Positions 2,961 to 40,567 of a stretch of DNA of 64,000 bases are shown piece after piece (position 1 is the stretch's first letter; each line of letters begins with the position of its first letter). The stretch covers positions 62,001 through 126,000 of the forward strand of contig JABANN010000003.1 of the NCBI GenBank assembly GCA_013115125.1, read 5' to 3'. The stretch comes from Perkinsus olseni. Taxonomy: Eukaryota. Both the position numbers and the translations under genes were made by a program. The notes beneath the pieces are model-generated. The model had not been told where the DNA came from and did no database searches. It saw only the letters and a program-made list of their open reading frames with translations.

Positions 2961-5459
2961 ATGTGTAGATTATCTTTGTTACTCTTGAGCGGTTTGGGCT
3001 TGGCTTTGGGGACCAGCGTCGAGGTAAGATAAAGATGCGTGCTTTCTCGTTCAGCTGACCGTTCAGGGACTTTAGATCATCTCTTTTTAAGTTTACCGTA
3101 GATGCAGGGTTTGAGCTCTTTTGACACGTTCTCGCTTTTTTAGGGCCCTAGAGATCGAGTACGTCAAGACCATGATCATTGCACTGCAATCGCGGTTGAT
3201 CGCGCTGCGACAATAGACGGTGGTTGTGTTTCTGGAACAAGTGCAGATGGGAGCCCAATTGATTTCAGGATGGTGTAGGTATCATCCAGGATGCGGTTAA
3301 TGAAGTTGTGAGCGTCAGGTACGTTCCTCCGAAGACTTATGGCGCTGGGGAGAAGAGGGCTGTCTACAAGCAAGTGGACGATTATCCGAGGATCGTCGAT
3401 GCCTCCCGAGCCCCGAGTTATGCGCCAACCTCGCCCGATCAGAAGCCTAGTGTACCTATTGGTTACATCGATATGCCTGAGGGCACGACTTACGGCTACT
3501 GGGATGCCGCTTATGGTGTCATGAATGAAGCTGGCTTGTCAATGGGTGAAAGCAGCTGTAGCGGTCGGTTGGCTGCTGAGCCGAGAGGTAACAGACTGCA
3601 TGGGTGCTCCTTCTGATATGAAATGCGTTAACGGGTTTGCGGACAAACTCTCCGGAAATCACAATTGACTAGCTAAGTCTCTGAATTATCATGTTTTTTT
3701 TCTCAGAGGACGAGTCCGATACCTCCAAAGCCCTCCTTTGGATCGGAGAACTCTCAGACATTGCCATGGAACGGTGTGCCACTGCCAGGTGTGCTATCGA
3801 GACGATGGGCGGTTTGGCGGAGAAGTATGGGTTTTATGGCACTACCTCGGTTGTGGAAGCCGGTGAGGCCTTGACCATTGCTGATAAGTCCGAGGCTTGG
3901 GTGTTCCACATTATGGCTGATGATACTGGAAAGGGAGCTATCTGGGCAGCCCAAAGAGTTCCCAAGGGTCACGCGACAATGGTACCTAATGTCTTCGTCA
4001 TTCGAGAGATTGACCCTGACGATTCCCAGAACTTCCTATTCTCGAAGAACATATTCGATGTGGCCGAGAGGTATCAACACGAGGGCGGGATCGCTGTGTA
4101 ACCACTCGAGGAGTATTTCGTGGCCGTAGACGGTCTGTGCTGGGCGCTTCAAAGAATGTCTTGCGCTTTCAGGCTCGGTTGGTGGGATGGCGCTGGCAAG
4201 CTCGACTTCGTCAAAGTTTACAGCGTGAGCGAGTAAGTTGATGATGCCTTGTGAATGCGGGCTATCTGGCAATTGGTAGATACGATCACCCCTATTATGC
4301 TGGGCGTCGTTTGTGGAGAGGTCTTTCACTATTCGCGCCATCGCTCAACCTCGATCCCAGACTTGGTGTCGAGTGGGACCGAGCCACCTACCCTTTCTCC
4401 GTGAAGCCTGATGAGCCAGTTACGGTTGATTTCCTCAAAAATTTGTATAGAGATCACTACGAAGGGACTCCGTATGATCTAACTAAGAATGTCGTTGCTG
4501 GCGGCCCTTTCAACACACCCAATAGGTACGTACATCCTGAGTAGAAGTTTATCAATCTCTTTTTAACCGTCGTCCGCAGGTATGATGGTGCTGAGGCTGA
4601 GAAGTCTTTCAAGCACGGTGCATGGGAGCGCGCTATATCGCTATATCGAACGCAGTACTCGTACTTCGCTGTATCCTATCAGAATAAGTCGAATATTATT
4701 TTCTTCGCTCCAGGTAAGTGCCCTAGCGGCTTCCCGACGCAACTTCCAAGCTTCCTTTCAGGCACTCCTCATGCGAGCGTTTATGTTCCTATCGTAGTAA
4801 AGCCTCATCAGTCTGTGGTAAGTTTCTGGTCTCAGAAGGCTCGTATCGGTTATCGTGCGTTCTCCATTCAGACGTCAATTCCTGCTCTCGAGTATGCGTG
4901 GCAGGGGGAGTTCAATCGTAGCTCTCTGTGGTGGGCTGTGCTGTCTGTGTCCAATGTCATGGACTTGAAGTACCGCTATATGATCGAAGATGTTCGCAAG
5001 GCTCAAGTGGAAGTTGAAAGCGAGATCGATAAGATGTTATTGGACAAGTCGGATGACGGTATGACTTAGGAGCGACGCTCTCGTATGTCCATCGTTTTGT
5101 GCTGTTCAGAAATTGAGGAGGCCATGCCTGGTTTCTGTGACGACTTGACCAGAAAGTGGTTCGACCTCACTTTCACCTTACTCGGCAAATATCAGAATGG
5201 ATATGCTGATTGGGGTTACACTAAGGTGAGTTACCTGGACTAGTATCATTCTTTCATCGATCGGTCATGATCCCAGGTCGGATATGGCCCGTCGACTGAG
5301 TGGCTCGAGCGTGCCGGATTCGGTAGATTCGCAGCTTCCAAGAAGCAATTTAAGGATCTCAGAAGGCGCTATGCGAAGTGCCAGAACGAAGCTGACGAGA
5401 TACGAAGCAGAATCAGAGGTCAAGCCTTTGAAGCTGAGGCTGTTGTCATCACGGAGTAG
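2961..5459 (+). CDS. Peptidase C69, copy 2, with signal peptide, multi-exon
   Basis: MCRLSLLLLSGLGLALG signal-like exon 1, then DHCTAIAVD. Same motifs and matching intron positions as copy 1. Confidence 0.88.
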
Positions 5460-7327: not shown

Positions 7328-9773
7328 TCATGATGGTGTAGCACATGCGAAGAGGCGATCATTGGGCATAGCCGGGGGTGCAGCAAACTCTGCCTCCAGA
7401 TCCGCTATTTCCGAGTAGGTTACGTCGGGGATGACCACCGAATTCATGGCGTCCAGGAAGGCCTCTCTGTCGCCACCAATGATCTCCCGAGTGTCCCTCA
7501 GCAGAAGCATGAGACACTCGTCAAAATCACGATCCCGTAGACGCTCATCCAAGATATCAAGAATCGCTATCCCGGCAGCATAGAGTACAGGCTCCTTGTC
7601 CAATAGGTAGAGGTCCCATACCAATGCCGCTGACTCGGTAGTTAACGGCCTGGAATACAGCGTCAGGAACCACATAGGGAGGAACTGATCCGGGCTGATT
7701 CCGACATCTGTCAAGTGCCGGTGGAGTGCTGGATTATGAGCCTTCAGGAGCTTCATGAAGATCCGAAAGCGTCGGCTATTAGTCTCAACGTTGAGCTGGT
7801 AGAGGCCTAGCAGTGTCGGTGAGCTCAACAGGAGTGATGCGAGGCAGACGAAGGCACCGAACGGGTCCATATAGAGGAGAAGCATCGCCGCCAGAAAAGA
7901 CATACCTTTCAAGCAACACCTACATGGTCAACCACGGGTGAGCCTCCTCACCTTGGACATAGCCGATGTCCGGTCTATACATAGCGAACGCAGAAAGGAC
8001 TAGACGGCACTCCTGCCGCAGAGGACCGTCAGGCACGCACATCACCGCGAGATCGGGTAATGTTCTAGGTAGGTCCAGGTCAATGGCTCGGAGCTGCGCC
8101 ATGAACGACCCTAATTGAAGTGATCACAGAGCATCGAAGAAGAGTCCAGGAAGGTCGATTGCTTACCCGGCTCCACTCGTCCACTTGGTGATGCGTCCTC
8201 GGCGAGCGCCATCGTGTTCACGGCTGCCAACCATCTGTTTTCCTCGGCTCTGCAAAGGTGACACTTCCTGGTGTGACACAGTAGCCCACGGATGATTACT
8301 TCGCCTTCCTCACGAGCATCTCGTACAAGCTCCTAGTGACCCTTAGAGGGTTACCTATCGCAGCGGGCCATAGCGCAGTCCGGGCCCGTGGCGGGAGCCC
8401 GTGTCTGCGCCACATTGACGCCATCCGATACGGTACTGGCCGATGGGGCAGGTAGTTCGGCAGGAAGTCCTTCATCCATACCTGCACCCGAAGATCAAAG
8501 GCAGGACTGACCTCACACCAAGGGATTCTACCTCCGTTAGTCTCTCAAGTGCTCTCTGCCGCTCATCACGAGCGCTACTTTCCCTGCAACGTCTAAGCTT
8601 GCCTTGTTCGAGAACCTCCGCGACCTGCAGGAAACATAGATGGGAATAATAACGTCGCTGCCATCTACGCAATACCTGTGCTTGGTGCCTACAACGCTCC
8701 AACCAGGACTTAGCAGGGAGATGGGCGGGTCTGAATGACCGAATGTCGGTTTGCCTGTCATCGGTATGGCACCGATGCTTCCCACCAGCCGATACAGTGT
8801 AGAGGAAAAGTATATACCGAGGGACCATGAGGAGGTCGCTCAGCCGGTATCCGTCTTTCGGGTGCTCCCCTTTAATCACACCGGCTTTGCCGGAAGAGTC
8901 GAAGACAACATAAGAACCAGAGGGTGATGCCACAACGCTGGTCGAGCCCAGAGTCCCAACAAGCTGACACTCTGCCGGGCACTCTATCCGTTGAAGGGCT
9001 GCTGACTGAGGACGCTGGCCACCCCAGACAAGAACTTTTTTGAAATGCTGGTAGGTGTTGCTGCAGCAGGCACACATCGCCACCGAGTGATCGCTCCCAC
9101 AGGCCAGCGTAGGGCTGCATCTCGGACACAATAGTGAAGCCACCGACTGGATGAGGATTGGAGCAGGCACCACGTCGGGGGCATCTGCCTGAACTTGGCC
9201 GTAGTAGTTGTTGCCCCAGCCGTACAAACCGTTCTCATCAGTGAGCACCACGACATGTTCCGGACCCACTGCTGCAGACCGTGCCCGGCCAGGGAGTGTC
9301 ACCCGACCAGGGGTAGAAACTTTGCTCGCACCTCCGTGGCCAAGAGCGCCCAAGAGGGATAAGCCCCACGTGTAGACATCGCCGGCGCGACTGAGTGCCA
9401 GCAGAAAACTGGTACCCGCATGCAGCTGATCAACTACTATGTCCTTCAAGGGGAGGAACGGTTGAGGACGCTCCCCCAGGGTAACCACCCGACCATCTTG
9501 TAAGAGAGCGTAGTGATGGCCTGTCCTCATGGATACAGCCACAGGCTCGCACTTGATGTCAGTAGGCAAGTCGGACGCCTCAGGGAACACTTCAAAAACC
9601 TGGGAGCCCCATACAAGTACAGCGATGTCCGGACCGACTCTTGACGCAAGGGAGAGGCGAGGGCTGGTGCTAGTCGAGTCACGCGCTGGGACCGGCAGCT
9701 CGATCTCGATAGTCGGAGACTCTGGTGACTCCGTAGAAAGCAGCGCAACCACCGCACCTGCTGACGACGCCAT
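7328..9773 (-). CDS. RCC1-repeat plus Rab-GAP TBC domain protein (TBC1D12/14-like C-terminus)
   Basis: RCC1 repeats (VYTWG..GALGHG, LYGWGNNYYGQV, LACGSDHS); RPAHLPAKS segment; TBC motifs IDLDLPRT (Arg finger), YVQGM (Gln finger), WFLTLYSR and VWDLYL. Confidence 0.88.
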
Positions 9774-9901
9774 GGCGGTAGCCAATACGATCTGAACATC
9801 GAAGAAGAAAGGTCCGAGACGCCAACGCAAGCCGACGAAAGGAAGCAGGAAAGATGGGTGATAATATAGTGCGGTCCAGTCGTAGTACAGCGCAGGAGAA
9901 A

Positions 9902-11123: not shown

Positions 11124-12002
11124 AGGGGGAAGGGTAGTGGGACCGAACGCTCTGCAAACAACGAAAAATAAGGCTCATACGACGAGCTCATTCAGCCGAA
11201 AGCGACTACTGCAGACTGAATAAACTGAAGCGGGCCTGAGGGAACCAGTAGTCGTCAAGGAGAGGGTGGAAGCAGAGACACCGTTATCCCTTTAACGCTA
11301 CCCGTCGAAGCTAACGGTCAGCTATACGTGGATCCCCGATTGGACAAGCGTGGAACGGTTGGGGAGGGGGCCGGAGGACTATAACACAGCAATGATACGA
11401 GATGAGGACATACAAACGCAGTGTTAGCATTAATCGTACAGTTGTTAGACCTCACCACGATAGCTACCATAACAATCGGGCTAGTGCCTGTCAATCGTGG
11501 GCGAGGAGAGCGGGAGGCAACTCGTAGTCCTGACCTTCCCCCGATGTCCTCGCGCTTGAGCATAATACTTCTAGCCCTACTATACTCCAAGGAGAGAAAT
11601 CAGCGTAAGCGGGTTTGCTTGCGGGTTCCTGCGATGATGGCAACCGTGGAGGAAACTTGAGAAAGCAAGATCGCTCAAGATGGTTCTCGGTTGTCGTTCC
11701 GATCGTCCACTTGCTCGACTCCAGTATGCCGTTGTTCCCGTCTGCCTATCGCTCGCGGCTGTTCGATTGTAGCCACGAAGAACGATTGTAACCCACGACG
11801 GAGCCTCTACGCAAGATAGCAGTAATCAAACATACCTATTCCACCAACAATTGGTCGGCCTGCCCGTGCGAGCGCTGTTTGTTTGCTTGGCTGGTCGACG
11901 TTGATGAGCGTATCGCTCGTGATTCGTATTGTACAGCATGTCGAACGGCTATAATTTAGTTTCAGAAGATCCTCCCTAGTTTACTGCTCTTGATTTTAAC
12001 GA

Positions 12003-12482
12003 ATGGCCAAGACCGCGACCTTCCGGACCTCACAGCGAGGTAAAGTGGTTTGCATAGTCGACGACAACGTCTACCATATGCAGCGAGTCTACAAGGATCG
12101 GGTCTACTGGTCGTGCAAGTCTCGAGCGAAAGGCTGCAAGGCCCGGCTCGTAACCTCGGGAGATGAGGTGGTGAAGCAAAGCCACGAGCACTGCTGCGGT
12201 CTGAGCACGCGGGGAGTTTCCCGGGCCAACTTCTCGTTTACTATGCCGTACAACACACCCGTGGAGGGTCCGAACTCTTCGACGACGGCCATGCCAGCGC
12301 CGTCGGAGGCAGCTGTCACCTCTGCGCCGCTTGATTTCACTGGTCAGCAGATCCTCTGTGACGGCACGATGTTGCAGGGTTATCCTATCCCTCCGGAGGC
12401 GCAGGTCACCGTAGAATTGGATGATGCAATTCGGAATTCTCCGCAGGTTCCCGACGCTCCCGTTGATCCTTTGCTCTGCTGA
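12003..12482 (+). CDS. FLYWCH-type zinc-finger protein, single exon
   Basis: F-TSQRGK..C..D..VY...YWSC....KGCKARLVT.......HEH pattern typical of the FLYWCH (WRKY-GCM1 fold) domain, followed by a Pro/Ala-rich tail. Confidence 0.75.
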   Translation: MAKTATFRTSQRGKVVCIVDDNVYHMQRVYKDRVYWSCKSRAKGCKARLVTSGDEVVKQSHEHCCGLSTRGVSRANFSFTMPYNTPVEGPNSSTTAMPAPSEAAVTSAPLDFTGQQILCDGTMLQGYPIPPEAQVTVELDDAIRNSPQVPDAPVDPLLC

Positions 12483-12774
12483 TTCGTTCTTTGTATCATC
12501 TCGTGTAAGTTAGCTGTCACTTTTCTGTTGTGCACCATTAACAATAGCTTCGCTGATGACCGGGGTTGCGTTTGCACGGTTGGCGGTCGATGTCTTCTCA
12601 CGGTCAGCGTGCGTTGGACTTTACTATAGTCTTCACAAAATCTCGTCACTTCATCTGGTTGCCTCATGTTTGTTTTATAGCCAGCAGTATCACCTGCTGT
12701 AGGGCCTTAGTGATCTAACATAGCACTCATCTCTCAGTTGTCGTGCTTCGACGGCTTCTTTTGAGCCTTATCCA

Positions 12775-15700
12775 ATGGTGGCCTACAAGTATCCCTACGA
12801 CTTGTATCACCAGGCCTTCGAGAACCCAGAGCTGGCCCATCGCACGGCGTGTGTGAAGGTTGGTGAGGACGGCGCAGTTTCGGACGTCTTAACGTATGCC
12901 GAGCTGTGTAGTCAAGGAAGGGATATGGCGTACTGGTTGAGTGCGATACTTGGGGTTAGGGAGGGGGACTGCGTGGGTGTGGCAATCGAGCGCTCAGGGG
13001 CGTGGCTGAGTATCCTGTTGGCTTGTAGTGCCCTGGGCACTGTGATGGCGCCGTTGGATCCGTCGGCTGATGAAGGGTAATCATGGGAGTTTCGCTGTGG
13101 GCGCTCTCGCTGATGCTGCGAAAACTACGACTTACCTGGATTTGAGAAACCTGAATTGGGAGTTCATTTGAGTTCTTTTCAGGCGACTCCGCGATCTTCT
13201 CTATCAAACGTCACCGGATATCTTGGTAGTTCGTTCGGGTGTTGGAAATACCGCGGGACTGGAATCAATGGCTGCCTGCCGCGTGATCGACATTACCCGA
13301 TCCGATGCCGTCTCGAGCCGTCCCCACCATTGGGTTGCTCCAACACTCTCGGTCTGCGATCCCGGCTACAGGCCGCTCTTCAAGATGTTTTCTGGAGGAA
13401 CAACTGGAACGCCGAAGCTAATACCAGTCACGCATGGCATGCCGCTGTCGGAGCTACCAGGGTATGCCGAAGATGTAGTGAAGCTGCCACCGGGGAGTCC
13501 TCAACCCGTAGTCCTCCAGTTTTCTGGGCTTCAATGGTTAGCTTCTATGATGGGCCAAGTTAATATCGCTCTCGCTACTGGTGGGGTTTGCCTCTTCGCT
13601 GATTGTCTGAAGGTCGGCTTACAGTGCGTTGACTATCCCCCAACTATAGTGGGGGCGGTCCCTACGCAACTGTTTCTGAACGCAACCCTCTTGTCGAAGT
13701 GCAAGCTTACTCACCTTTTGCTTTGGGGCGAGGCTTCAACTCCTGCTAAGCTGGCTGAATTGCAAGCCTTGGTTGGGAAGGCTCGAGTGGTGGACTTGCT
13801 GATTGCGACAGAGTTCTGGCTGTGCCTGGTTTGTGATGGTAGTATGGGGGTTGTCCTTGAGCTTATCGGGCATGTTTGACGGGGTTACCGTTTCCAGCTC
13901 GAAGTACTTTACGTCACCCTCATTGTGAATATCCCAATACATACCTCATCATTCGGAGTCTCTTTTGGTTGGGGTAGACTGTTTTCGAGCCACCCGTACC
14001 CTCCCTCGACGCATGTCTGTTCAGATGGTTCCGCGATGTTCCGAACTCTTCGCTCGAAGGACGTTGAAATCAAGTTAGCCCCGCTAGGGGATGAGGACGC
14101 AGCGCCGGTGGATCACAGGTATCTGTCTTCGCTTGTGGCGTCTGAATCCGTTATTTACATTTCTGTCCCTCTGCCGACTCAGGCCTCGAAAACGCGGGGA
14201 ATTGATGATGCGCGGCCCCTTTGTGTGCCAGCCTTTAACAGACGAGGAAGGTTGGTTTAGAACAGGAGATGTTGCTGAGATGGATGATCGAGGTAGTAGG
14301 TGGGTAATGTGGGCGCATTGTCGGCGTGGCTCAGATTTTTAGTCGATGCGGCTTTCTGCCTTCTACGTTCTCTTGTTGTAGGTCGAGTGCATTACCTTGG
14401 TCGCTTGGGTGGAAGGCTAAAGGCCTCAGGAGGGGTTTGGATCGACGCGCTGCCCATTGAGCAATTGGCACTTTCCTGCGGTGCAGGTGTCGAGGAGGCG
14501 TCCGTTCTTACCCACGACGGGCGCAACTACATGTTTGTATATATGAAGAAGTTGGAGTCTGAGGCGAGCGACTCCGACTCTGACGACTGGTATGCTGGGT
14601 CATCGGATAACTCTCATTCCGATGATGACGGAGAAGGGTCGCGTACTGCTCCTTCTTATGCGATCACCGAGGAGGATGAGTCTGCTTTGTCGATGTTGGG
14701 CCAGTACTCAACTTTACGCAGCGCCCTGGCCGCGAACAACGATGCTGCGGTTCTTGATTTGACCATTCGGATGTCCTGCAAGCCCTTACCGAGGAATCCC
14801 AATACGAACAAGATAGACCGATTTCAATTGGTCAAGGAAGTGCTTGGCCACGAGAACTCATGGAGGCAGTGTCTGGAGCCGGAGCGACGGCGTCGCCTGA
14901 TGAGCGCTTGGAAGCGTGTTGGGCTTTGGGGCGCCGGCTCACTGTTAGCATGTGGCCCGAAGGAGTTCTTTCTGCATCTGCCGTACATGTGGCTGTCGAC
15001 TCTCTACTTGCCCGTCTTCGAGGAGGATGCTACAACTGTGAGGGAGAAGATCGGTCTCTTCGTACTACGCCTCATTAGAAGTTGCCCGCTCGACCGTATA
15101 GGGTTCTTTGCTGCGTGGTTTGCCCTCTCCCGCCGTTTCAAACCGGTCCGGAAAATGACTTGGGTGTGGACCTTAGTCGGAGCCTTCTTAGCCTTCAAGG
15201 ACGGGCGTTTCCTCTCTTGGCCGCCCGCGTTCTGGTACGCCATTGGGAACCAGAGCAGTTATGAGTCGGCCAAGTGGCTGTCATGGGGATTCGCTAAACG
15301 CCAGATCAAGTGGAACGCGCAGTGGTTTTGGTGGTACCTCTCGTTGAGATGGTTACGGAATGCTGACAAAACGACTTACGGTGGTTACGGAGGGGACTGG
15401 AGGAATCAGGTGGCACCCAAAGAAGATAAAGTCGCCGTACCCAAGGACGATGAGAGCGTTGATGGTATCGAGAGGCAGGATGCCCTCAGCGTACTCACTG
15501 ACGAGGCCCAAGATACGCCACTAGAAGCAGCGGAGCAGTCGGAGGGGTCGCTTGGCTTACCTGTTCCGGAGGATCTCAGACCAGTAGAATCAACGGCTCC
15601 GTCTGTCAACCTGGATATGCCCGAGGAGAGCCAAGGTTCAAGGGTTGCTGGTGAGGGCGGTGAAAACGTCTCTACTGCGGACTCCCCTTCTTTGCCGGTT

Positions 15701-17788
15701 GAGGGAGGCGGGCAAGCACCCATATCGGGAAAGGCTAGCATAGTCGACGATGACATCATGTCTGCCTCGGACCTCGGAGAGAGTCCCGATACTCTAACTC
15801 CGAACGAAACGAGTGCGGAGGAGAGCCTTCCGGTGGAGAAGCTGGAGGTGCCTCCCCAGAAGTATCATTACAGAACCTTCCAGAAATGGTGGTGGCATGA
15901 GAGGGCTTTGGACCGGTTCGACTGGACGAGGACTCATTTTGTTAAGGGCGTTCGTAACGTCGTCCGCACTGTTCCAGATGCGACGCAGTTGGTTGGGGAT
16001 GTTAGCTCAGAGCAAGTATGCGCTTTGGTGTCGGGTATCACAGGTTGGCCTAAGGTGGACGCCAGCACAGATCTGGGCGGCATGACGTCGCTGCAGATCT
16101 CTATGCTTATGAAGAGGTTGCCGGGGCAAGTTGCCGCTAAGGACGTTTTGCTGTGCAAAGATGTCGCCCACTTAGTGGCATTGTTGCAGTCGCCGATGAA
16201 GGAGGAGGCAGTCTTGCAGCCTGTTGGTTCTGAGGAGCCTTTCCGGGCATGGTTCTCACCGGGGCAGTTGAACAGAGTTTGCAAGTGGGCCTTCCAGATC
16301 CGCGGTGATCTGGACATGGATCGCTTGCAGGATGCTGTAGATCGCATGGTTGATCGGCACCCCATGCTGAGAGCTCGGGTCGTCGGACCAGCCCGCATAT
16401 CGAGCTTCCTTTACGACAGCGTCATGGTGCTCTTGCCGACTTTGTCCCGCCTTCCCGAGCACTCCTGGACGTCGTGGTGGCTTCGGCTGCTGATTTGCAA
16501 GCCTCTTTGGCATGCATGGGTTAAGGTCCGTTGTCGTGAGCGCGAAGGCCATGTCCCAATTGGGGTTCGCTGGGCGTGGGGGAAGGACCCTCGTAAGTGC
16601 CAGAGGCAGATGTTCCGAGCACGAAGCGATATGGAAGACGACAGATCCGACGACACCCCTCTCAAGCTGTATTTGGTCCAACAGCGCATAGACGACCCCG
16701 AGAACCCGGAGACGTTCATCGTGAGACGTCAGTGGTTGTTCGTCATGATTCGGCATGCGTGGTCCGACGCTTTGTCTTACTTCCCCATCGCGGACGACCT
16801 GAGCAAGGCGTTTTCGAACGAAGATCTGCTTGGCGAGCCTTTGGAAGTGGTCGACCCTCGACCATTGCTACAGCAGAGATTCTACGATGGTCTTCGAGTA
16901 ACTCACGGAGCCCCGGATCGTAACAGTTTCCGTGGCTCGTATTTCTATGATGAATTCATGACTAGAGATGCATATCATCACTACTGCAAAATTACTAATA
17001 GATTCATTTGTCACTTCCGTTATTTGGCCGAGGAGCATTATCACATCCCGCTGGAGCACTTGTTGATTGCCTGGATTTCATTGAGCTTGGCTCGTGCTGA
17101 CCAGAACGAGAATGTGGGTATGACTCTCTACACTCCTCTGCGTGATGGCCCGATGGAGAGTCAGATGCTTGCGCTTCTAGCCGACTGGCGCGACTTCGAC
17201 TTCGATTTCTCCTTTGAAAGAGGATCTGTGATGGACGCGGTTCTTCACGTTTCGGATAAGCTCAGGAGGCGTGACTACACGGTTTTTGACCAGCCTGGCA
17301 ATCCCGAGGCGACTCTGTTGAACTTCCTTTCGCTGGACACCCGCGTCCGCGGCAATGGGAGGCTACGTCATGTCCATGTGGACAAGGTTGGTTTTCGTGA
17401 AGACGACAACGATAGGTCCTGGGGCTGGGTTGATCGACAGCAGTGGCGCGAGGGCCCCGGACATCGCCAGCGCAGCATGACCCTCGAGCAAACAAGCGCT
17501 CGCGGGGCTTGGTGCTTCGCGATGACGTTGGCTCCTGAGTATTATCCTCCGGAGTGGTGCAGAAGGTTCTCCTATTATATGAAGTTGACGGCTGACCAGG
17601 TCTTCAGGGATCCACTCGGCTCGTGTGGACGTGTGCAGTATGACGAGGAAAACTACGCAGAGGAGTGGAAGAAGTGGGAGAGGGACTCTGAAGCGGCCGA
17701 GAGATACGACATGTTCCAAGAAGATGAGTTGATGTGGTCGAAGTTGCCCACACAGACTGCAAGTCAGCACGCTATTCGTGATGATTAG
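12775..17788 (+). CDS. NRPS-like enzyme: adenylation domain, hydrophobic membrane segment, carrier (T) domain, terminal condensation domain
   Basis: A-domain cores [37 protein letters not shown] and [12 protein letters not shown]; carrier motif GGMTSL (Ser codon about 16088); C-domain RHPMLRA and RHAWSDALS (about 16751). About 4 introns in the 5' part; the last exon is about 3.4 kb. Confidence 0.85.
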
Positions 17789-17940
17789 TTTCCTCCAGCC
17801 GATAAAAATTACGTTGCTTTCTGTCCGGTGAAGTATCTTGAGTTGACCATAATATTCGAGGCGCGCGCTCATGTCGCGGTTCCGCGTTCGTCGCCCGACT
17901 CGGAGGAGCTTCGACCCGTAACAGTTAAGATTTTTTGTAA

Positions 17941-19500
17941 ATGCTTTTACATGACTTGGTAAATGCTCCTCGTCCACACTACATTTGCGTCCTCCTCTCG
18001 GGCCTCTCCGTGCTGCTGTATAACCTGCGAACGATCAAATTCGGCTTGGATCGGCCTGTAGAACTCTGGCCCCTTGCATTCGTCTGTGTTAGTCCAATGA
18101 TCGCCGCTCAGGAGTACCACAGGTCGTTCTTAGTCTCCCTTGTGACTTTCACGATATGCTCGACGTTATTCTTCTGGTCGATTGGGCTCGAGTGGTACGT
18201 TGGCTTTGTTACGGGCCTTATGTGGGGCGTCCTGTGGGACCTTCTAGAGTTCTCCGACCTCTACTTGTTCAACGACAGATTCGATACAAGCAAGCCAACG
18301 AGAAGAGCGACGTACTGGACCACCATAGTCTACATAACCTCCCTCTTTTTGGGGACATTCTTTGCCTTGAGCACTCCCTTGCATGACGCCCCGATCCTGA
18401 TCCAGCCGATTTCTCTCCTCGGCTTTTACGCGTTGGAATTCACCGTGTTCACAGTTAATGCGGCTGCCGGTCAACTGGTTTTCTCACAGGACCGGAAACC
18501 TCTGGCAAAGATCGTGCTGTGGTGCATGATTGGTTGGACGTTCATCTCGGCGATTCAGTTCTACGTTCCACGACTTTCCGCTGGGCCTTCGGCAAGAGTG
18601 GCTACGATCACGCCTGGGGCAGAGCTCGGTGGAGTTTCATGTGATAAGACTGTAGTTGAACAGTATGAGAAGGATGCCACGTGCAATGGGACGCTGGAGA
18701 GGCAGCTCGAATTGACCCGACACGCTGTCACAGTCGGTGGCGCCAAGTTCGTGGTGTGGCCGGAGATGTGGCTCGGGCCGTTCCAGAATCTGACAGATGC
18801 GGAGGATTATGTTTCCTCTCATGTGGGGCCGTTAGCAGGACGGCTGAGCGCTTTCGTGTCTGTCGGGGCCCTCGTTGGTGAAAGTGGTAATATTGCGATC
18901 ATGGTGGGACCGGAGGGCGAAATTCTGGGTGTGTATGGGAAACAGAAACCGCTCGCTCTGGTCGGAGAGAAGAGCTTGTTAAGGTTTGGTTATCCGACAT
19001 ATGAAATTCCCTCGACATCTCTCGTTGAACGGAATAGAACCTCCTCTGGCAAGGTTGGGACACTTATTTGTTACGATGTGGATTTTACTGGACCTCTGCG
19101 CTCCATCATTATGCAGGGGGCGGGGCTGATTCTAAATCCGTCGCAAGACTGGTCCGCAGTTAGGGACCATCTATCGCAGGCCGTCTTCAGAGCGGTGGAG
19201 AGCAGGGTTGCCATTGCGAAGGCAGACATGGCATGGGACTCGGTTATCGTGGATCTTTGGGGGCGGAAGCTTGCTCGGTTCCAGAGTCTCAACGAACGAG
19301 AGAATGTCTTGGTTGCGACAGTCGAGCTGGGCAACGGAGCGCCAACGGTCGCCACGGTGACTGGTGATATCCTCCCGCTGCTTTGCGCTGCATTTTCCCT
19401 GTTTGTGCTGGTGTCTGCCGGGCGGAAATGGTATGAAGTTCGACTAGCAAGGCGCGTATACACTCCCGATGGAGAATACGGCTCTCTACTGTCGGCGTGA
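17941..19500 (+). CDS. lnt: Apolipoprotein N-acyltransferase (Lnt)-like membrane nitrilase-superfamily enzyme, intronless
   Basis: About 6 N-terminal hydrophobic helices; Glu-Lys-Cys triad in VVWPE, YGKQKP..VGE and LICYD; RAVE..V.I motif; C-terminal T.ATVTGD followed by a TM helix, as in bacterial Lnt. Confidence 0.85.
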   Translation: MLLHDLVNAPRPHYICVLLSGLSVLLYNLRTIKFGLDRPVELWPLAFVCVSPMIAAQEYHRSFLVSLVTFTICSTLFFWSIGLEWYVGFVTGLMWGVLWDLLEFSDLYLFNDRFDTSKPTRRATYWTTIVYITSLFLGTFFALSTPLHDAPILIQPISLLGFYALEFTVFTVNAAAGQLVFSQDRKPLAKIVLWCMIGWTFISAIQFYVPRLSAGPSARVATITPGAELGGVSCDKTVVEQYEKDATCNGTLERQLELTRHAVTVGGAKFVVWPEMWLGPFQNLTDAEDYVSSHVGPLAGRLSAFVSVGALVGESGNIAIMVGPEGEILGVYGKQKPLALVGEKSLLRFGYPTYEIPSTSLVERNRTSSGKVGTLICYDVDFTGPLRSIIMQGAGLILNPSQDWSAVRDHLSQAVFRAVESRVAIAKADMAWDSVIVDLWGRKLARFQSLNERENVLVATVELGNGAPTVATVTGDILPLLCAAFSLFVLVSAGRKWYEVRLARRVYTPDGEYGSLLSA

Positions 19501-19646
19501 TTTCCGCTACTCCTCTGTTACCATGGCCTGTATGGTAGAATTCTGACATGACTTGACACTGTCAAGTTGACAGTAAGATGTCATTGCGATGCGTTCAGTT
19601 TGGGGGATGACGTAACGCGAGCAGAGTGTCTGGTCCTTGTCGTCTA

Positions 19647-21178
19647 ATGTCCAAGCGAGTAGCCGAGAGCCAACTGACCAAGGATGATGCCCCAGAGGAA
19701 GACAATGTGGAGGACCCTGGCACTGGACGCGAGAGGGCCTCCGCTGACGTACGCACGAATCAGCCGGGCATTGGTTGGGCATTGGCATGAATTGCCGAGT
19801 CAGATACTTGCGAAGCGTAAGATTGTTTCAGTGAGACGGAAGAGTGAAGCGGCGGCTGCTCCCGCAGCGGAGAAGGTACTGAGATTTATCGGGCGGGTGG
19901 ATTACCATGAAGAAATACTGGTCTCAGCCTTCTACCGCCTCGGAAACGGAGAGTGTGGCTTCTTCCCAGAATCCATTTGCTAATCTAGGAAGTGAGTTCC
20001 TTCACTTCATCCGCTTCATTCGGATCATCCGCCTTTCCAGCATCATCCAAGTCGGGAGAGAGTGAGGGAGGCCCCAAAAGCAGTAATCCATTCTCTGGCA
20101 TCTCCTTCGCAAGTGCCTCAAAAAGTGGCGGAGGGAGCCTCTTCGGCGACATTGGCAAAAGTAGTGAGCGGGTTGTACATTAGCATTTTCAGCTCCGAGA
20201 TTCGGCTGGCTTCTGTAGGTATGGCCGGGGGAGCCGGCAGTGGATTCGCTGCCTTCGGCGCCGACCAAAGCAGCAAGTCGGAGACGGGCGAGCCGACCAG
20301 CCCGGAAGAAGGTGTCATCGTTAGAAGAGACTTAATGTCCTTTTAATCTAAACACTTCAGGAGATTCGTCCGAGACGTCAGAGCCCCAGCCCCATCCTGT
20401 TTGCAGTGGCGAAGAGGGCGAGTCTTTGATGTACTAAGGCGTGGTGGACCAATACGACGTACTGCACTCGGCATAGGTTCTCGTCTGATTGCAAGCTATA
20501 CAAGCTGATGAAACAGCAAGACGAAAAGGAAACAGCCGGCTCAAGTACGGAGTTGTTGGTTTCCGTTCCAGGCAAAGGCTTCAATGCAGGCAGTAGTGAA
20601 AGCAAGGCCAGCGGCTCGAAGTATAAGTGGACGGAACGAGGCATGGGCAGCCTCAGGGTCCTCAAGAAGGACAGCGATGATAACGTACGCGTTGGAAGCC
20701 ACTTTCTGTGCGGAAAGCGGTTCTTCGTCAGGCCAAGGCGGCTGGACGGATAGTCGTTCGTATGAAGGGAGTGTGGAAAGTTATATTGAATACACCGATA
20801 TTAGATGCCGATAAATATGAATTGGTAATAAGGCGCATTTTTCATCTGCTCTTAGCTGGCCTTTCGCTTTGGTCTCCGCGCGATTGTCCTCTGATGGAAC
20901 CAACTCTTATTTGCCTCGTCCAGGTGGGTACCAAGAGCGTCAAGTTCTTCGGTCTTGACGACGAGAGCGACGAGGAAGGTCAATTGGCGTCCTATCGCGT
21001 TAATGTACTAGGACAAATCGGCGTTTCATCCATCGTCACAGTATTGTGCTTCTCCGCTCAGTTGCTTTCTTCCGAGAATCAGTCCGAGTTCTTAAAGGCG
21101 GTCAAGAGCTTCTCATTAAGCGGTGCCTCTACAGCCGCCCCGACGCCCGAGGCAGCAGACAAGAAGGAAGAAGCCTGA
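19647..21178 (+). CDS. NUP50: Nucleoporin Nup50/Nup2-like (N-terminal importin-binding motif, F/FG-rich linker, Ran-binding domain)
   Basis: MSKRVAESQLTKD and ILAKRKIV N-terminus; SNPF/SLFG repeats; KWTERGMGSLRV..RIVVRMKGVWKVILN RanBD motif. Confidence 0.8.
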
Positions 21179-21264
21179 GGAAGTTCTCTAGCCCAAATAG
21201 TCTTTGCTTGTTGTGTTAACTCCACTGTTCTCCAAGTTTCACCCTTCAGTCTGTGCTCCGTCTG

Positions 21265-36664: not shown

Positions 36665-36832
36665 CCTGGCTTCTCGATTGCATAATATTTTCCCCACGTC
36701 CAACCGGTCCGATAGCTGCGAGGCAGCTCTCTTGTATCTCTACGTAACATTTAATTAGCCTATTTCACAGATCTGTCGAGTTTGTGTGGGTCGAATTCAT
36801 TTTCGTACTAGTTTTATTCGATCGTTCTTCTA

Positions 36833-39800
36833 ATGCCTGGGATGGGCTCGTCTTCAGAGCCGAAGCGACGCCAGGCGTGGCGGCGCCTTCTGCCCAAGTG
36901 TTTATGTCGCAAGCAGAAGGATGAAGTGCCCCAGGATGCACAACTTATATGTGCGGTGAATGTACCCAAGCTCTGCAGTAAGTGTGTTCAGGGCTGGTCT
37001 AACTCGGTTATGACCAGCAAATACACAGTTCTCACGTTTCTGCCCAAGAACTTGTGGTACCAGTTCCACGTCTTCTCCAACGTCTACTTTCTCTGTATGG
37101 CAATGTTGCAATTAGTACCTGCTATCTCTGACTCTAATGGTAAGCCGACTATGCTCACACCTCTAGCTTTGGTGCTGGGTGTAACGGCGTTGAAGGATGC
37201 CATCGAAGACTATCGGCGGCACAGATCCGATGCGGTTGAGAATTCGAGAGTAGCAGTGAGGTTGAATGCTGGTACAGGGCAGTTGGAGAAGGTTCCGTGG
37301 TCTAGTTTGGTGGTTGGCAACGTGGTGAAGCTGCGGAAGGGTGATGCTGTTCCTGCTGATATGGTCTTGTTATCGAGCTCTGATGATACCGGCACTGTGT
37401 ATGTCGAAACTAAAGACCTCGATGGTGAGACTAATCTCAAGGCTAAGGTCTGCCTTGAAGAAACACAAGGGCTGGATGTTCGGAAGATTAACGCAGCTTC
37501 ATCGGCTCGCGTTGATGACCACCTCTGCGTTCGTATTGCCTACGAGCAGCCTACGGCGTCACTGTATTCTTTTTCCGGGTCGATCGGTATAAACAACGAG
37601 GCTCCGTTGGCTCTGTCGGCTGATCAGCTGGTTCTACGTGGATCGAGTATTAGAACCACGAAGTATGCATGGGGAGTTGTCGTCTACACAGGTCACAACA
37701 CTAGGCTGATGGTCAACTCAGCGGCATCCTCCTCGGGAAGGTACAAGCTGTCTAAGCTAATGAAGATGTACAATACACATATCTTGCAGCTGTTCGCGCT
37801 GCAGATGTTCTTCTGTGCTATATCAGCGGTCTCCTACGCTCTTTGGAGCAACCTGTGGCAGGACAACTGGTATTTAGAGCGTCCAGAAGAAACCATTGGT
37901 ACGAAGATTCGCGAGGTGATTGAAGTTTTTGGTCGGCTCGTACTTCAATTCACTCTCTTCGTCCCTATATCCCTGCTGACTACCTTGGAGATCGTGAAGG
38001 TTGTCCAAGGTTATATTATTTCTCGCGATAGAAAGATGGTCCATGGCGATGTGAAGGCGCAAACCAATTCGGCTGGCACGGCCGATGATCTGGGGTGCGT
38101 GACTCACGTGTTCTCGGACAAGACCGGCACTCTCACCGAGAACTGCATGCTCATCAACACGCTTGGTATAATGGGTGACTTGAACCGCCAATTCGGTCCG
38201 AACCCACATTTGATGCAGCCGTGTGATACTCATGTGAGCCAGAAATTCCCCACGCGAGGTATCAAGGCAGTATCGACTGGGAAGGATGAGGCCAACCTTC
38301 GGCGGTTGTTGCTTGTTCTGGGGCTCTGTCATTCTGTACTCCGACAGCAGCGGGATGAGAGCGACTCGGACGATGGGGCACATCAGGGGACCCCGGTGGC
38401 GGGTAAATTGAACTACGCCTCCTCGGTTGATACTACTGGTGGCTCTTCAAGCAGCTGTGCAGCGGAAGATCCCAAGTCTACGGATGATAGCGAGGATCTC
38501 TATGATGCATCTTCGCCGGATGAGATGGCCTTGGTGGCTGGAGCACGCGAACTCGGTTTCGAGTTTTGGGGAAGACCGAGCGCCCACAACATTGTCATGA
38601 AGTTCACCAACGACTGGGCTAGGAACTTAATTGGTCATGACGGTGGTGTTTCTGATGACACCGACTTTATAAACTATGAGGTTCTGGAAGTGCTCGAATT
38701 CGACAACGTACGCAAGCGCATGAGTGTCATGGTGCGCAGTCCCACTACGGGGAAAGTTATGCTCCTTGTGAAAGGGGCCGACTCTACAATGCTGGAGGTC
38801 GCCACGTCTGAGACAGATTCGAATGGTCTGACTACCTACTTGCTCGGCCTTGCCACTCAGGGCCTTCGGACTCTGGTTTTAGGTGTTCGTGAGCTGAGCG
38901 GTTTCCCACTCGACAACTGGCGTGCACGCTACGGTAAGGCTCGCGCAGCTGGAGATACCGATGCCCTCAGCGAGCTGATATCGGAAGCCGAGATGGGAAT
39001 TACTATCGTTGGCGCCACCGGCATCGAGGATAAGCTCCAGGATCACGTGCCGGAAACCATCTCCGAGATTCGGGCTGCTGGGGTGAGTATGTGGATTCTG
39101 ACCGGCGATAAGGTGGAGACGGCCATCAACATCGGACGGTCCAGCAATTTGATCTCTCCTAATGGGGAGAACTTCGTCATCCAGGATCCTGATATGAACG
39201 AGAAGGATATCTTGGAAAAGCTCCAGGACATATCTGACAGGGGCGCGGAGCCAAGAACTGTATCGCTGACTATATTGGGCGACTGCTTGGCAACAATCCT
39301 GAAGAGTGACGATCTCCGCGAGCAGTTCTTCTCTGTCGGGTTGACCAAGTGCGGCACGGTTATTGCTTGTCGAGTCTCCCCGGCTCAGAAGGCAGACGTT
39401 GTGGCGTGGGCACAGAAGTACCACAGCAGTGGTACCATGCTGGCAATTGGTGATGGTGCCAACGACGTGGGAATGATTGTTACTGCCGACGTGGGTGTCG
39501 GAGTTGCCGGTCGGGAGGGAGCCCAAGCAGTGAGAGCAGCAGATTTCGCAATACCGAGGTTTTGCCACTTGCAAAGGCTACTCTTCGTTCACGGTCGCGA
39601 GACTATAAGAAAAAACACGCTTTTTATATACTACACTGTGTTCAAGAACGTCGCCTTTGGTATTCTGGCTATGCTGTTCGGGCCGTTCTGCATGTTCTCC
39701 GGTTCTATCATCTACGATCCTTTCCTCAAGGCGTGGTACAACACGTTCTTTACTCTGCTTCCTGTCATGGCATACGCCATCTTTGACCGAGACCTGCCTT

Positions 39801-40567
39801 ATAATATCCTCGCTAGGTGCTCCTTCCTGTACAAGTGGCCTCGGCCCTTGTTCTCGAAGCGAGTCCTGGCAATGTGGTTTTGGCACGCCTTCTACGTTGG
39901 TGGTGCCTGTTTGATAGTGTCTACTTACTTTTCTAGTGTATTCATTAGGAATCGCCGTGGTATGGTCGTTACCACGCTTCCCGAGCTATCGGTACTCGTA
40001 ATGGTGGTCCTCATTCCTCTGATGAATCTCATGATTTATCGTTGGGTCAACTCATTTCATTGGTTCACAACTCACTTTTTGTATAATATCTGTACCGTTC
40101 TATTTGTCGCGGCTCTGTTCATCCTCTATCGCTTCTTCCTCTGGGACATCCTCTTTAATCCCATGGGTGTTGCCATATGCCTAATGGGCTGGGCAACAGC
40201 TGTTTTACCGCTCATATTCTACCATACCTATATGTCGCTCTTCAAACCTGACAACGCTCGGATTGTCAAGGAAAGGCTTCACATGGGTGTGCATGATCTG
40301 GTCATCGGTAAGGGTGGTCCGGAGGTCGGCGGTGCTGCTGAGGTCTTGGTGCCTAATCTCACCGCTATTGAGCACACGACCACGCTGGCGTCGAGTGAAG
40401 TTGCCCATGAGGCGGCTCCGAGGTCCATGCGGGATCGTGTGAACTCTACCGGTTATGCCTTCAGTGAGTCGGAGAACCAAGATAGAATCGGATTATACGC
40501 CCATAGTAAAGTGCTACAACCGCTCTCTTCGAAGCTCGGCATCTTGAGGGAGAAGTCCCCTTGGTAA
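36833..40567 (+). CDS. P4-type ATPase (phospholipid flippase), intronless
   Basis: TSKY..LTFLPKNL, LDGETNLK, VPISL, FSDKTGTLTEN, SPDE.ALV, RKRMSV, KGAD, TGIEDKLQ, LTGDK.ETAINIG and GDGAND. Confidence 0.97.
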   Translation: MPGMGSSSEPKRRQAWRRLLPKCLCRKQKDEVPQDAQLICAVNVPKLCSKCVQGWSNSVMTSKYTVLTFLPKNLWYQFHVFSNVYFLCMAMLQLVPAISDSNGKPTMLTPLALVLGVTALKDAIEDYRRHRSDAVENSRVAVRLNAGTGQLEKVPWSSLVVGNVVKLRKGDAVPADMVLLSSSDDTGTVYVETKDLDGETNLKAKVCLEETQGLDVRKINAASSARVDDHLCVRIAYEQPTASLYSFSGSIGINNEAPLALSADQLVLRGSSIRTTKYAWGVVVYTGHNTRLMVNSAASSSGRYKLSKLMKMYNTHILQLFALQMFFCAISAVSYALWSNLWQDNWYLERPEETIGTKIREVIEVFGRLVLQFTLFVPISLLTTLEIVKVVQGYIISRDRKMVHGDVKAQTNSAGTADDLGCVTHVFSDKTGTLTENCMLINTLGIMGDLNRQFGPNPHLMQPCDTHVSQKFPTRGIKAVSTGKDEANLRRLLLVLGLCHSVLRQQRDESDSDDGAHQGTPVAGKLNYASSVDTTGGSSSSCAAEDPKSTDDSEDLYDASSPDEMALVAGARELGFEFWGRPSAHNIVMKFTNDWARNLIGHDGGVSDDTDFINYEVLEVLEFDNVRKRMSVMVRSPTTGKVMLLVKGADSTMLEVATSETDSNGLTTYLLGLATQGLRTLVLGVRELSGFPLDNWRARYGKARAAGDTDALSELISEAEMGITIVGATGIEDKLQDHVPETISEIRAAGVSMWILTGDKVETAINIGRSSNLISPNGENFVIQDPDMNEKDILEKLQDISDRGAEPRTVSLTILGDCLATILKSDDLREQFFSVGLTKCGTVIACRVSPAQKADVVAWAQKYHSSGTMLAIGDGANDVGMIVTADVGVGVAGREGAQAVRAADFAIPRFCHLQRLLFVHGRETIRKNTLFIYYTVFKNVAFGILAMLFGPFCMFSGSIIYDPFLKAWYNTFFTLLPVMAYAIFDRDLPYNILARCSFLYKWPRPLFSKRVLAMWFWHAFYVGGACLIVSTYFSSVFIRNRRGMVVTTLPELSVLVMVVLIPLMNLMIYRWVNSFHWFTTHFLYNICTVLFVAALFILYRFFLWDILFNPMGVAICLMGWATAVLPLIFYHTYMSLFKPDNARIVKERLHMGVHDLVIGKGGPEVGGAAEVLVPNLTAIEHTTTLASSEVAHEAAPRSMRDRVNSTGYAFSESENQDRIGLYAHSKVLQPLSSKLGILREKSPW

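Follow-up and report, generated by a model that had tools for sequence, protein, structure and literature searches.

A Nonribosomal Peptide Synthetase-Like Gene and a Divergent Lnt-Like Gene of Perkinsus olseni Are Probably Neighbors by Ordinary Gene Order

Positions 62,001 to 126,000 (forward strand) of the Perkinsus olseni contig JABANN010000003.1 (GenBank assembly GCA_013115125.1) were analyzed as a single window of 64,000 nucleotides (nt), and all coordinates given here count from the first letter of that window. Positions 12775 to 19500 hold two adjacent genes, designated here gene A and gene B, which a preliminary description of the window had interpreted as a membrane module for lipo-amide biosynthesis. 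The analysis presented here points to another reading, which we consider probable: these are two separate expressed genes that are neighbors by ordinary gene order. Gene A encodes a nonribosomal peptide synthetase (NRPS)-like protein, in which an adenylation (A) domain is followed by a helical domain, a disordered linker, a carrier (T, or peptidyl carrier protein [PCP]) domain, and a condensation (C) domain. Gene B encodes a divergent relative of the bacterial apolipoprotein N-acyltransferase, Lnt. An unrelated third gene keeps its place next to the pair, members of the gene A family were not found around the bacterial relatives of gene B, and the two families differ in their ranges.

Gene structures and transcription

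RNA contigs from four public runs (X7, X8, X12, and X9) were mapped to positions 12400 to 19900 of the window. In all four runs, they reveal four GT..AG introns in gene A, at positions 13077-13182, 13839-14024, 14119-14182, and 14293-14381. The spliced coding sequence (12775-17788) lies on the plus strand, like all other features of the two genes described here; its five exons comprise 4569 nt and encode 1522 amino acids (aa), with one terminal stop.

Exon 1 (12775-13076), which starts with the ATG at 12775 and whose joint was seen in all four runs, encodes the N-terminal part of the adenylation domain (Pfam AMP-binding, E value of 1.5e-10). Exon 2 (13183-13838) encodes the adenylation core, with the A3 motif GGTTGTPK and the residues WLA at the A4 position (AMP-binding, E value of 6.7e-13). 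Exon 3 (14025-14118) is delimited by the joints 13837/14024 and 14115/14180, both of the GT..AG type and both found in all four runs, and it keeps the reading frame open. Exon 4 (14183-14292) contains the A7 motif RTGD and is spanned by the tblastn match of P0108, the ortholog from P. chesapeaki. The remainder of the protein, from the C-terminal subdomain of the adenylation domain through the helical domain, linker, carrier, and condensation domains, is encoded in the 3407-nt exon 5 (14382-17788). This exon has no intron, and its contigs are collinear with the window from 14380 to 17826 in X7, to 17824 in X8, and to 17790 in X9. The contigs of gene A have their 3' ends at 17826 (X7), 17824 (X8), and 17823 (X12).

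The X8 contig of gene A carries, directly before position 12736, 11 additional 5' letters, ATCTTGGCTCA. Together with the AG at 12736-12737 of the window, they are identical to the 13 nt that end PmaSL1, the Perkinsus spliced leader whose sequence is printed in PMC3101222. Because the contig tail and the AG match the 3' end of the leader, the gene A mRNA is trans-spliced, with 12736-12737 (plus strand) as the acceptor and a 5' untranslated region of only ∼37 nt.

Gene B (17941-19500) is intron-free and encodes a protein of 519 aa. It is covered by its own collinear contigs without introns, 17847-19548 in X7 and 17923-19547 in X8, that is, in two of the four runs; there is no gene B contig in X12 and X9, where missing coverage proves nothing, given the nature of contig data. 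Contig depth for genes A and B was 98 versus 73 in X7 and 55 versus 7 in X8, a measure that cannot rank genes.

The stop codon of gene A occupies 17786-17788 and the ATG of gene B begins at 17941, which leaves a spacer of 152 nt (17789-17940) between the two genes, exactly the co-oriented arrangement given in the preliminary description. At the RNA level, the contigs of the two genes are ∼20 nt apart (17823-17847), and those of gene B and the next gene are ∼75 nt apart (19548-19623). Such close-lying contigs would fit polycistronic precursors resolved by trans-splicing. No contig in the four runs joins gene A with gene B, and the two genes are on separate contigs in both runs that contain both of them; contigs of this kind show neither precursor transcripts nor levels of expression.

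The intron-free stretch of about 5 kb (∼14381-19500) that had been noted earlier is real: the RNA contigs are uninterrupted over 14382-17788 and 17941-19500. A stretch of this kind is not unusual for the window, because a P4-type phospholipid flippase (P4-ATPase) is encoded in the same window by a likewise long, uninterrupted open reading frame (ORF) of 1251 codons (36812-40564, plus strand).

The adenylation, carrier, and condensation domains of the gene A product

The assignment of the N-terminal part of the gene A product to the adenylation domains is supported by P0108, the full-length ortholog from P. chesapeaki (1506 aa), which matches the Pfam AMP-binding family with an E value of 1.6e-33. 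The best NCBIfam model for all four family members that were compared is TIGR01733 (amino-acid adenylation), far below its cutoff in each case, and the best sequence matches of the family in the Protein Data Bank (PDB) are to adenylation domains of NRPSs. The spliced protein contains the A3, A7, and A10 motifs, and the residues NKIDR are present. In a family alignment of 13 sequences, the A3, A8, and A10 residues, the carrier Ser, and the HxxxD motif of the condensation domain are invariant in all 13.

In the nomenclature of adenylation core motifs from which the names A3, A7, A8, and A10 are taken, the A4 motif reads FDxS, and its Asp holds the alpha-amino group of the substrate. In the alignment with the PsoA adenylation domain, the residues WLA of gene A stand opposite FDA, so that the A4 Asp is replaced by Leu; the consensus of the 13-sequence family alignment at this position is W-x-A-S. 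With Leu in place of the Asp that would contact the alpha-amino group, gene A probably acts on an acid of a kind different from the alpha-amino acids. An acidic, Ser/Asp-rich insert of ∼30 residues (∼14570-14660) also lies within the adenylation domain, in its C-terminal subdomain. This insert is predicted to be disordered, with a predicted local distance difference test (pLDDT) score of <50 at model residues 66-94.

The carrier domain (15995-16195) has the motif GGMTS, in which Thr occupies the position usually taken by Asp or His. Its predicted phosphopantetheine attachment site is Ser957 (16088-16090), which opens the second carrier helix (residues 38-47 of model me151f8d58484) in a four-helix unit and is invariant in two family alignments (13 of 13 and 32 of 32 sequences). 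The condensation domain (16244-17644) carries the motif RHAWSD with His1179 (16754-16756) and Asp1183 (16766-16768), each at least 90% conserved among 61 aligned sequences, and the family motif aligns with the HHxxxDG motif of an NRPS condensation domain. An AlphaFold model of the carrier-condensation part, built from 61 aligned sequences, has a mean pLDDT of 87.3 and a predicted template modeling score of 0.87. In a Foldseek search of the PDB with this model, the top match was the PCP-C bidomain of TycC (PDB entry 2jgp; E value of 9.3e-19). There were 228 matches with E values of ≤0.001, led by C, epimerization (E), and PCP-C entries; further matches included LgrA, PvdL, and other PCP-C didomains, as well as AmbB-TC (7x0f) and the chain-releasing C domain of the enacyloxin synthetase (6cgo). 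All 30 of the nearest clusters in the ESM Atlas belong to the Pfam Condensation family (score of 0.98).

Pfam models recognize this family unevenly: among 23 relatives of gene A, AMP-binding was detected in 21, PP-binding reached its cutoff in 8, and Condensation exceeded its cutoff in 2. One relative, P0134, passes the cutoffs for the A, T, and C domains together. The predicted fold and the aligned catalytic residues show that the T-C reading of the C-terminal part is right, and the domain calls of the preliminary description (A, T, and C) are borne out by the Pfam AMP-binding matches, the PCP-C matches in Foldseek, and the Condensation clusters of the Atlas.

The helical domain and the linker

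Between the A10 lysine and the carrier, gene A encodes a conserved Trp-rich helical domain of ∼185 aa (14819-15376; residues 174-359 of P0001). It folds into eight helices in the AlphaFold model mb28683b60c56, which was built from 32 sequences and has pLDDT values of ∼65 to 97, mostly 80 to 97, over blocks of 10 residues. Near-invariant Pro, Gly, and Phe-Trp columns run through the same 32 family sequences. Pfam has no model for this domain, and no Pfam family matched it in either gene A or the ortholog P0108.

The preliminary description regarded the gene A product as membrane embedded. By hydropathy, this part of it held for most of the family members compared but not for Perkinsus. A mean Kyte-Doolittle value of ≥1.6 over 19 residues was used as the threshold for a transmembrane (TM)-grade segment, and the highest such value in the helical domain of the window protein is 1.12. 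Trp and charged residues abound in this domain in Perkinsus, and seven of the eight predicted helices carry 2 to 8 charged residues. Among the 31 family members with at least 100 residues in this region, at least one TM-grade segment was found in 21 and at least two were found in 13, with a maximum of 2.68. The three Perkinsus sequences and four near relatives have no segment that reaches the threshold in this domain. The Wimley-White octanol scale was non-discriminating, as it flagged segments of the soluble C domain as strongly as those of the helical domain. By these hydropathy profiles, a membrane part between the A and T domains is a trait of the gene A family, and peripheral or interfacial membrane binding is as likely for the window protein as insertion.

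The helical domain is followed by an acidic, low-complexity linker of ∼200 aa (15383-15994) that is predicted to be disordered (pLDDT of <50 over model residues 334-539). Compared with the P. chesapeaki ortholog, the linker is 56% identical, the helical domain 75%, and the condensation domain 90%, with the folded domains falling in the range of 75 to 90%.

Range of the gene A family, proposed mechanism, and known systems

An exhaustive HMMER search, for which residues 560-1162 of the last exon served as the query, yielded 157 representatives with E values of ≤1e-3, many of them 1200 to 1970 aa long with the match at the C terminus. Of the 25 clusters that were looked up, 18 are from ENA, Logan, or JGI records, two are from EukProt transcriptomes, and five have an organism name. 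All five named clusters are from dinoflagellates: Gymnodinium smaydae (two clusters), Polarella glacialis, Polykrikos kofoidii, and Prorocentrum cordatum. A word-based protein search with gene A retrieved three Perkinsus proteins alone, all of them orthologs, and in viral contigs 47 pattern matches included no relatives. The named members of the A-helical domain-T-C family found so far come only from Perkinsus and at least four species of dinoflagellates. The literature search yielded no description of this layout and none of an NRPS in Perkinsus.

The domain content suggests a likely catalytic mechanism. The adenylation domain would activate some carboxylic acid outside the ordinary alpha-amino acids, and a thioester bond would attach the activated acid to the phosphopantetheine arm of Ser957. 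From there, the terminal C domain, with His1179 and Asp1183, could hand the acid over to a free amine or hydroxyl, and the resulting amide or ester would be released. Lying between A and T, the helical domain most likely keeps the enzyme at or in the membrane, which suggests that the acid or the acceptor may be lipid-like.

In this mechanism, gene A would work as a stand-alone A-T-C enzyme, with the C domain releasing the thioester onto a free nucleophile. It shares with other stand-alone NRPS-like A-T-C enzymes the NRPS-type adenylation domain, the carrier Ser that opens helix 2, the HxxxD motif, and the PCP-C fold. According to PMC10522769, a condensation domain is found "more rarely" at the end of NRPS-like modules. 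Gene A differs from the enzymes of this type by the additional ∼185-aa helical domain and the ∼200-aa disordered linker between A and T, by its poor recognition by the Pfam PP-binding and Condensation models, which barely detect it, and by its lineage (Perkinsus and dinoflagellates).

Another known type of single-module NRPS-like enzyme is the membrane-bound polymerase exemplified by epsilon-poly-lysine synthetase. As described in PMC10522769, members of this Pls family consist of A and T domains followed by ∼730 residues with six TM helices, arranged in three pairs around three segments of ∼180 residues. The same source places here PosA, the delta-poly-L-ornithine synthetase, and Pls and PosA both resemble gene A in having a single A-T module, membrane-associated parts, condensation-type chemistry, and no thioesterase. 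That gene A is a polymerase of this type might be suggested by its single-module, NRPS-like layout with a possibly membrane-associated part and by the match of the family profile to the adenylation domain of epsilon-poly-L-lysine synthase (7wew; 1.7e-35). However, many ordinary NRPS adenylation domains far outscore 7wew. Pls and PosA have the order A-T-(TM pair-C1-TM pair-C2-TM pair-C3) and act on diamino acids, whereas gene A has the order A-helical domain-linker-T-C, with the helical domain before T, one canonical C domain in a PCP-C didomain fold, and a replacement of the Asp that binds the alpha-amino group. After the T domain of gene A there is one soluble C domain with no segment of a Kyte-Doolittle value of ≥1.6, and a Pls-type polymerase was rejected as extremely improbable.

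Gene B encodes a divergent Lnt-like protein

The gene B product has hydrophobic segments in residues 14-209, a CN-hydrolase domain in residues ∼215-470, and a last TM helix in residues 473-491. Its hydropathy profile contains five segments with Kyte-Doolittle values of ≥1.6 and more with values of 1.0 to 1.6, including residues 473-491. The Pfam CN_hydrolase model matches with an E value of 1e-12 (48.4 bits versus a cutoff of 23.2), LNT_N falls just below its cutoff (24.8 versus 27.1 bits), and the TIGR00546 (lnt) model spans both the membrane and hydrolase parts with an E value of 5.5e-19, at 68.6 bits versus the equivalog cutoff of 132.9. The catalytic triad is recognized in conserved alignment columns as Glu275 (18763-18765), Lys334 (18940-18942), and Cys377 (19069-19071). 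In an alignment of 26 sequences, Glu275 and Lys334 are invariant and conservation of Cys377 reaches at least 90%; two other alignments, of 13 and 6 sequences, show no variation at any of the three positions.

A search of the PDB with the single gene B sequence using phmmer gave no matches. A profile that combines Perkinsus and bacterial sequences recovers every solved Lnt protein in alignments that span the full length, with E values from 6e-59 to 1e-51. A direct comparison of the eukaryotic clade with a bacterial Lnt profile in hhalign gave a probability of 99.94% and an E value of 6e-37 for residues 8-497 against columns 19-526; the bacterial profile consisted of ten sequences, most of which are named apolipoprotein N-acyltransferase by their source. 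The Lnt-like N-acyltransferase fold that the preliminary description had assigned to gene B is thus confirmed by the profile alignment, the Glu-Lys-Cys triad, and the polytopic membrane domain. By sequence comparison, gene B truly belongs to the Lnt-like superfamily, though as a divergent member, and it is not an equivalog.

Gene B shares with the bacterial Lnt proteins of known structure (5n6h, 5vrg, 5xhq, and 5n6m) the polytopic N-terminal domain, the extramembrane CN-hydrolase domain, the last TM helix, and the triad. It differs from bacterial Lnt in several respects: it is found in a eukaryote, scores below the TIGR00546 and LNT_N cutoffs, shares no more than 37% identity with any of its bacterial relatives, and lacks ∼19 columns after the K-x8-GE segment of the hhalign alignment. 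Further, its clade stands apart from the sampled bacterial groups, and its nearest bacterial relatives are not Proteobacteria. By analogy with Lnt, gene B may move a phospholipid acyl chain onto Cys377, from which an amine on the non-cytosolic side of the membrane could receive it. The CN-hydrolase domain contains three N-x-S/T sequons, at Asn249, Asn283, and Asn365 (18685-18693, 18787-18795, and 19033-19041); P. chesapeaki has sequons at two of these positions, and so does P. marinus. They may fit a lumenal or outward-facing CN-hydrolase domain.

Relatives and origin of gene B

The best protein matches of gene B are from P. olseni (93% identity) and P. chesapeaki (70%), along with a 70% match that clusters with the P. 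marinus ortholog. In a tree of 67 sequences, the three Perkinsus orthologs and a P. marinus paralog form one clade, with support of 99 in the Shimodaira-Hasegawa-like approximate likelihood ratio test (SH-aLRT). Its sister group consists of P0009 and P0010, from Logan and ENA records (SH-aLRT support of 100), with a gap pattern common to both clades. The joint clade stands beside a large bacterial group on a long branch (1.01) and is nested in no sampled phylum; the tree was made by a quick method and includes several sequences of odd composition. P0009 and P0010 may be further eukaryotic copies or may represent the closest donor lineage.

The closest relatives from prokaryotic genomes, at 29 to 37% identity, are mostly from Chloroflexota (Anaerolineae) and Syntrophomonadaceae, with others from Meiothermus and Actinomycetota. 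JGI metagenome contigs added 333 relatives, the best of which is 37% identical, and thus yielded no environmental copy from a perkinsid. Because all the relatives found outside Perkinsus and P0009/P0010 are bacterial, a bacterial origin of gene B is plausible. On the evidence of the tree, the transfer probably took place before the Perkinsus species and the paralog diverged. The earlier suggestion that the pair was possibly acquired from bacteria is accordingly plausible for gene B, but its extension to a joint acquisition with gene A is not supported, as a scan of prokaryotic genomes with one peptide pattern revealed no member of the gene A family.

The surroundings of the bacterial relatives show some regularities of their own. 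In 5 of 15 bacterial loci, all of them from Chloroflexota, the Lnt-like gene is immediately preceded, on the same strand, by a gene for a PadR-family regulator (at positions ∼9270-9900 in loci L004, L010, L029, L052, and L073). In Meiothermus, a LolA-like gene (L021:9204-9854) lies directly upstream of the Lnt-like gene.

A rival reading is that gene B is a true apolipoprotein N-acyltransferase, acting in an Lgt, LspA, and Lnt pathway that Perkinsus retained or acquired. The whole-length homology to Lnt profiles, the intact triad, and the deposition of the P. marinus ortholog as "Apolipoprotein N-acyltransferase, putative" would agree with such a role, and the LolA-like neighbor in Meiothermus indicates a lipoprotein context for some of the bacterial relatives. 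However, the TIGR00546 score reaches only about half of the equivalog cutoff, the eukaryotic sequences taken by themselves miss the solved Lnt structures, and their clade sits on a long branch. To our knowledge, neither Lgt nor LspA is known in eukaryotes. A true Lnt function is therefore considered very unlikely, and gene B is better described as an Lnt-like protein. A literature search found no paper that joins Perkinsus with apolipoprotein N-acyltransferase and, as far as titles and abstracts show, none that deals with a eukaryotic Lnt.

Do genes A and B form one module?

In the reading proposed by the preliminary description, the two genes belong to one lipo-amide pathway: gene A would make an acyl or aminoacyl thioester or amide, gene B would N-acylate the same molecule or its protein or lipid acceptor, and their adjacency would have been selected. 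We regard this as unlikely. In its favor, the genes lie side by side in one orientation with 152 nt between them, contigs of both are present in two runs, and both proteins come from acyl-transfer enzyme classes. Their order is also kept in P. chesapeaki, where the orthologs of gene B (FOL47_003273) and gene A (FOL47_003274) are found on one contig of 262,041 nt. However, an exon of the next gene in the window, which encodes an unrelated RanBD1/NUP50-like protein, served as a control: its P. chesapeaki ortholog, FOL47_003272, is likewise on a contig of 262,041 nt, and the order of the three genes is the same as in the window. Since this unrelated neighbor keeps its place too, the adjacency of A and B carries no signal of its own.

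The surroundings of the gene B relatives also argue against a module. The flanks of these relatives, up to 10 kb, were searched by tblastn with five proteins of the gene A family at an E value of ≤1e-4, and no match was found in either 80 prokaryotic loci (1,031,589 nt) or 80 metagenomic loci (676,322 nt). A Pfam search of the flanks of 15 bacterial loci (38 ORFs) found no adenylation or condensation domain, and the neighbors varied. The co-occurrence of the two families is no closer: members of the gene A family are found in dinoflagellates, but a word-filtered search listed no dinoflagellate among 103 relatives of gene B, where the only sequence sourced from EukProt is a P. marinus protein. 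The families also differ in copy number, with at least two Lnt-like lines in Perkinsus and only orthologs found for gene A, and each of the two genes has RNA contigs of its own.

The expected topology points in the same direction. The hydrolase domain of Lnt faces away from the cytoplasm. Gene B has the same layout as Lnt, with a basic C-terminal tail, and gene A has no signal sequence. By this analogy, the active sites of the two enzymes would lie on opposite faces of the membrane, gene A being expected to need ATP and a phosphopantetheinyl transferase. The two enzymes would then act independently of each other.

Several points weigh against this conclusion. Genes A and B are adjacent and co-oriented in an organism with trans-splicing, and their RNA contigs are only ∼20 nt apart; a shared precursor transcript and coordinated expression are possible. 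Their adjacency has been kept in P. chesapeaki at 70 to 86% protein identity, and work on acyl groups at membranes is plausible for either enzyme. The negative searches have limits as well: the tblastn screens of the flanks would miss very distant AMP-binding genes, the absence of Lnt-like genes from dinoflagellates rests on a word-filtered search in which 8000 candidates were scored, and the gene A family was not found in 185,579 genomes of prokaryotic species by a search that used one peptide pattern only. With respect to the proteins themselves, the gene A product of the window is below the Pfam cutoffs for the domains of its C-terminal part (Condensation, E value of 0.05; PP-binding, no match), and the membrane association of its helical domain in Perkinsus is something that we infer. 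For gene B, a profile built from the six eukaryotic sequences matches no solved Lnt at an E value of ≤1e-3; its 17 PDB matches at this threshold are all soluble CN hydrolases of the nitrilase type.

Genomic setting

The two genes are set among ordinary eukaryotic genes, which include two for Peptidase_C69, those for RabGAP-TBC, RCC1, FLYWCH, RanBD1/NUP50, DEAD helicase, and P4-ATPase proteins, and pieces of a xanthine dehydrogenase gene. Immediately upstream of gene A is an ORF for a FLYWCH zinc-finger protein (12000-12479, plus strand; Pfam E value of 1.7e-11), and an RNA contig over its 3' part stops at 12553. Downstream of gene B is the RanBD1/NUP50-like gene (∼19623-21200, plus strand), which encodes FG-type repeats, has an intron at 19749-19803, and shows a very high contig depth (∼1500 in X7). 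ORF pieces of the Peptidase_C69 (dipeptidase) family occur in two sets (933-2008 and 3685-4098, plus strand) that have the appearance of tandem copies.

In overall GC content, neither gene A nor gene B looks foreign compared with the rest of the window. The GC content at third codon positions (GC3) is 0.64 for gene A and 0.61 for gene B, and it ranges from 0.56 to 0.65 in five other ORFs of the window. These values bear on the possibility that one or both genes result from bacterial contamination or an assembly artifact. Such an origin might be suspected for gene B, which is intron-free and has bacterial relatives, but four spliceosomal introns interrupt gene A, its mRNA carries a spliced-leader tail, and both genes lie in one contiguous stretch between the genes for the FLYWCH, RanBD1, RabGAP, RCC1, and P4-ATPase proteins, with GC3 values like those of their neighbors. 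Moreover, there are orthologs in three Perkinsus species, and the stretch is present in DNA and RNA runs of several studies. Given the introns, trans-splicing, eukaryotic flanks, GC3 values, orthologs, and independent runs, contamination or an artifact was rejected, its probability being negligible.

Implications

The gene A family probably points to a membrane-linked small-molecule or lipid product. Perkinsids and dinoflagellates form a group noted for unusual lipids and toxins, and the A-helical domain-T-C enzymes are apparently an undescribed family of this group. The observations on the two genes could also be combined in a speculative model, which we consider improbable: a membrane-anchored perkinsid-dinoflagellate family with an A-helical/TM-T-C layout would build a lipid-linked amide or ester, and the Lnt-like neighbor, acquired horizontally, would have been drawn into this pathway in Perkinsus to act on the product once it had crossed to the other face of the membrane. 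Perkinsus species are parasites of oysters and clams, and a counterpart of gene B would not be expected in their mollusc hosts. If the model were true, the parasite would carry a surface lipo-amide without a counterpart in its host.

Gene B is a rare case of a bacterial-type Lnt-like enzyme that has been fixed and duplicated in a eukaryote. The two genes illustrate that, in a compact trans-spliced genome, neither tight adjacency nor a gene order kept in a sister species is by itself the mark of a functional module.

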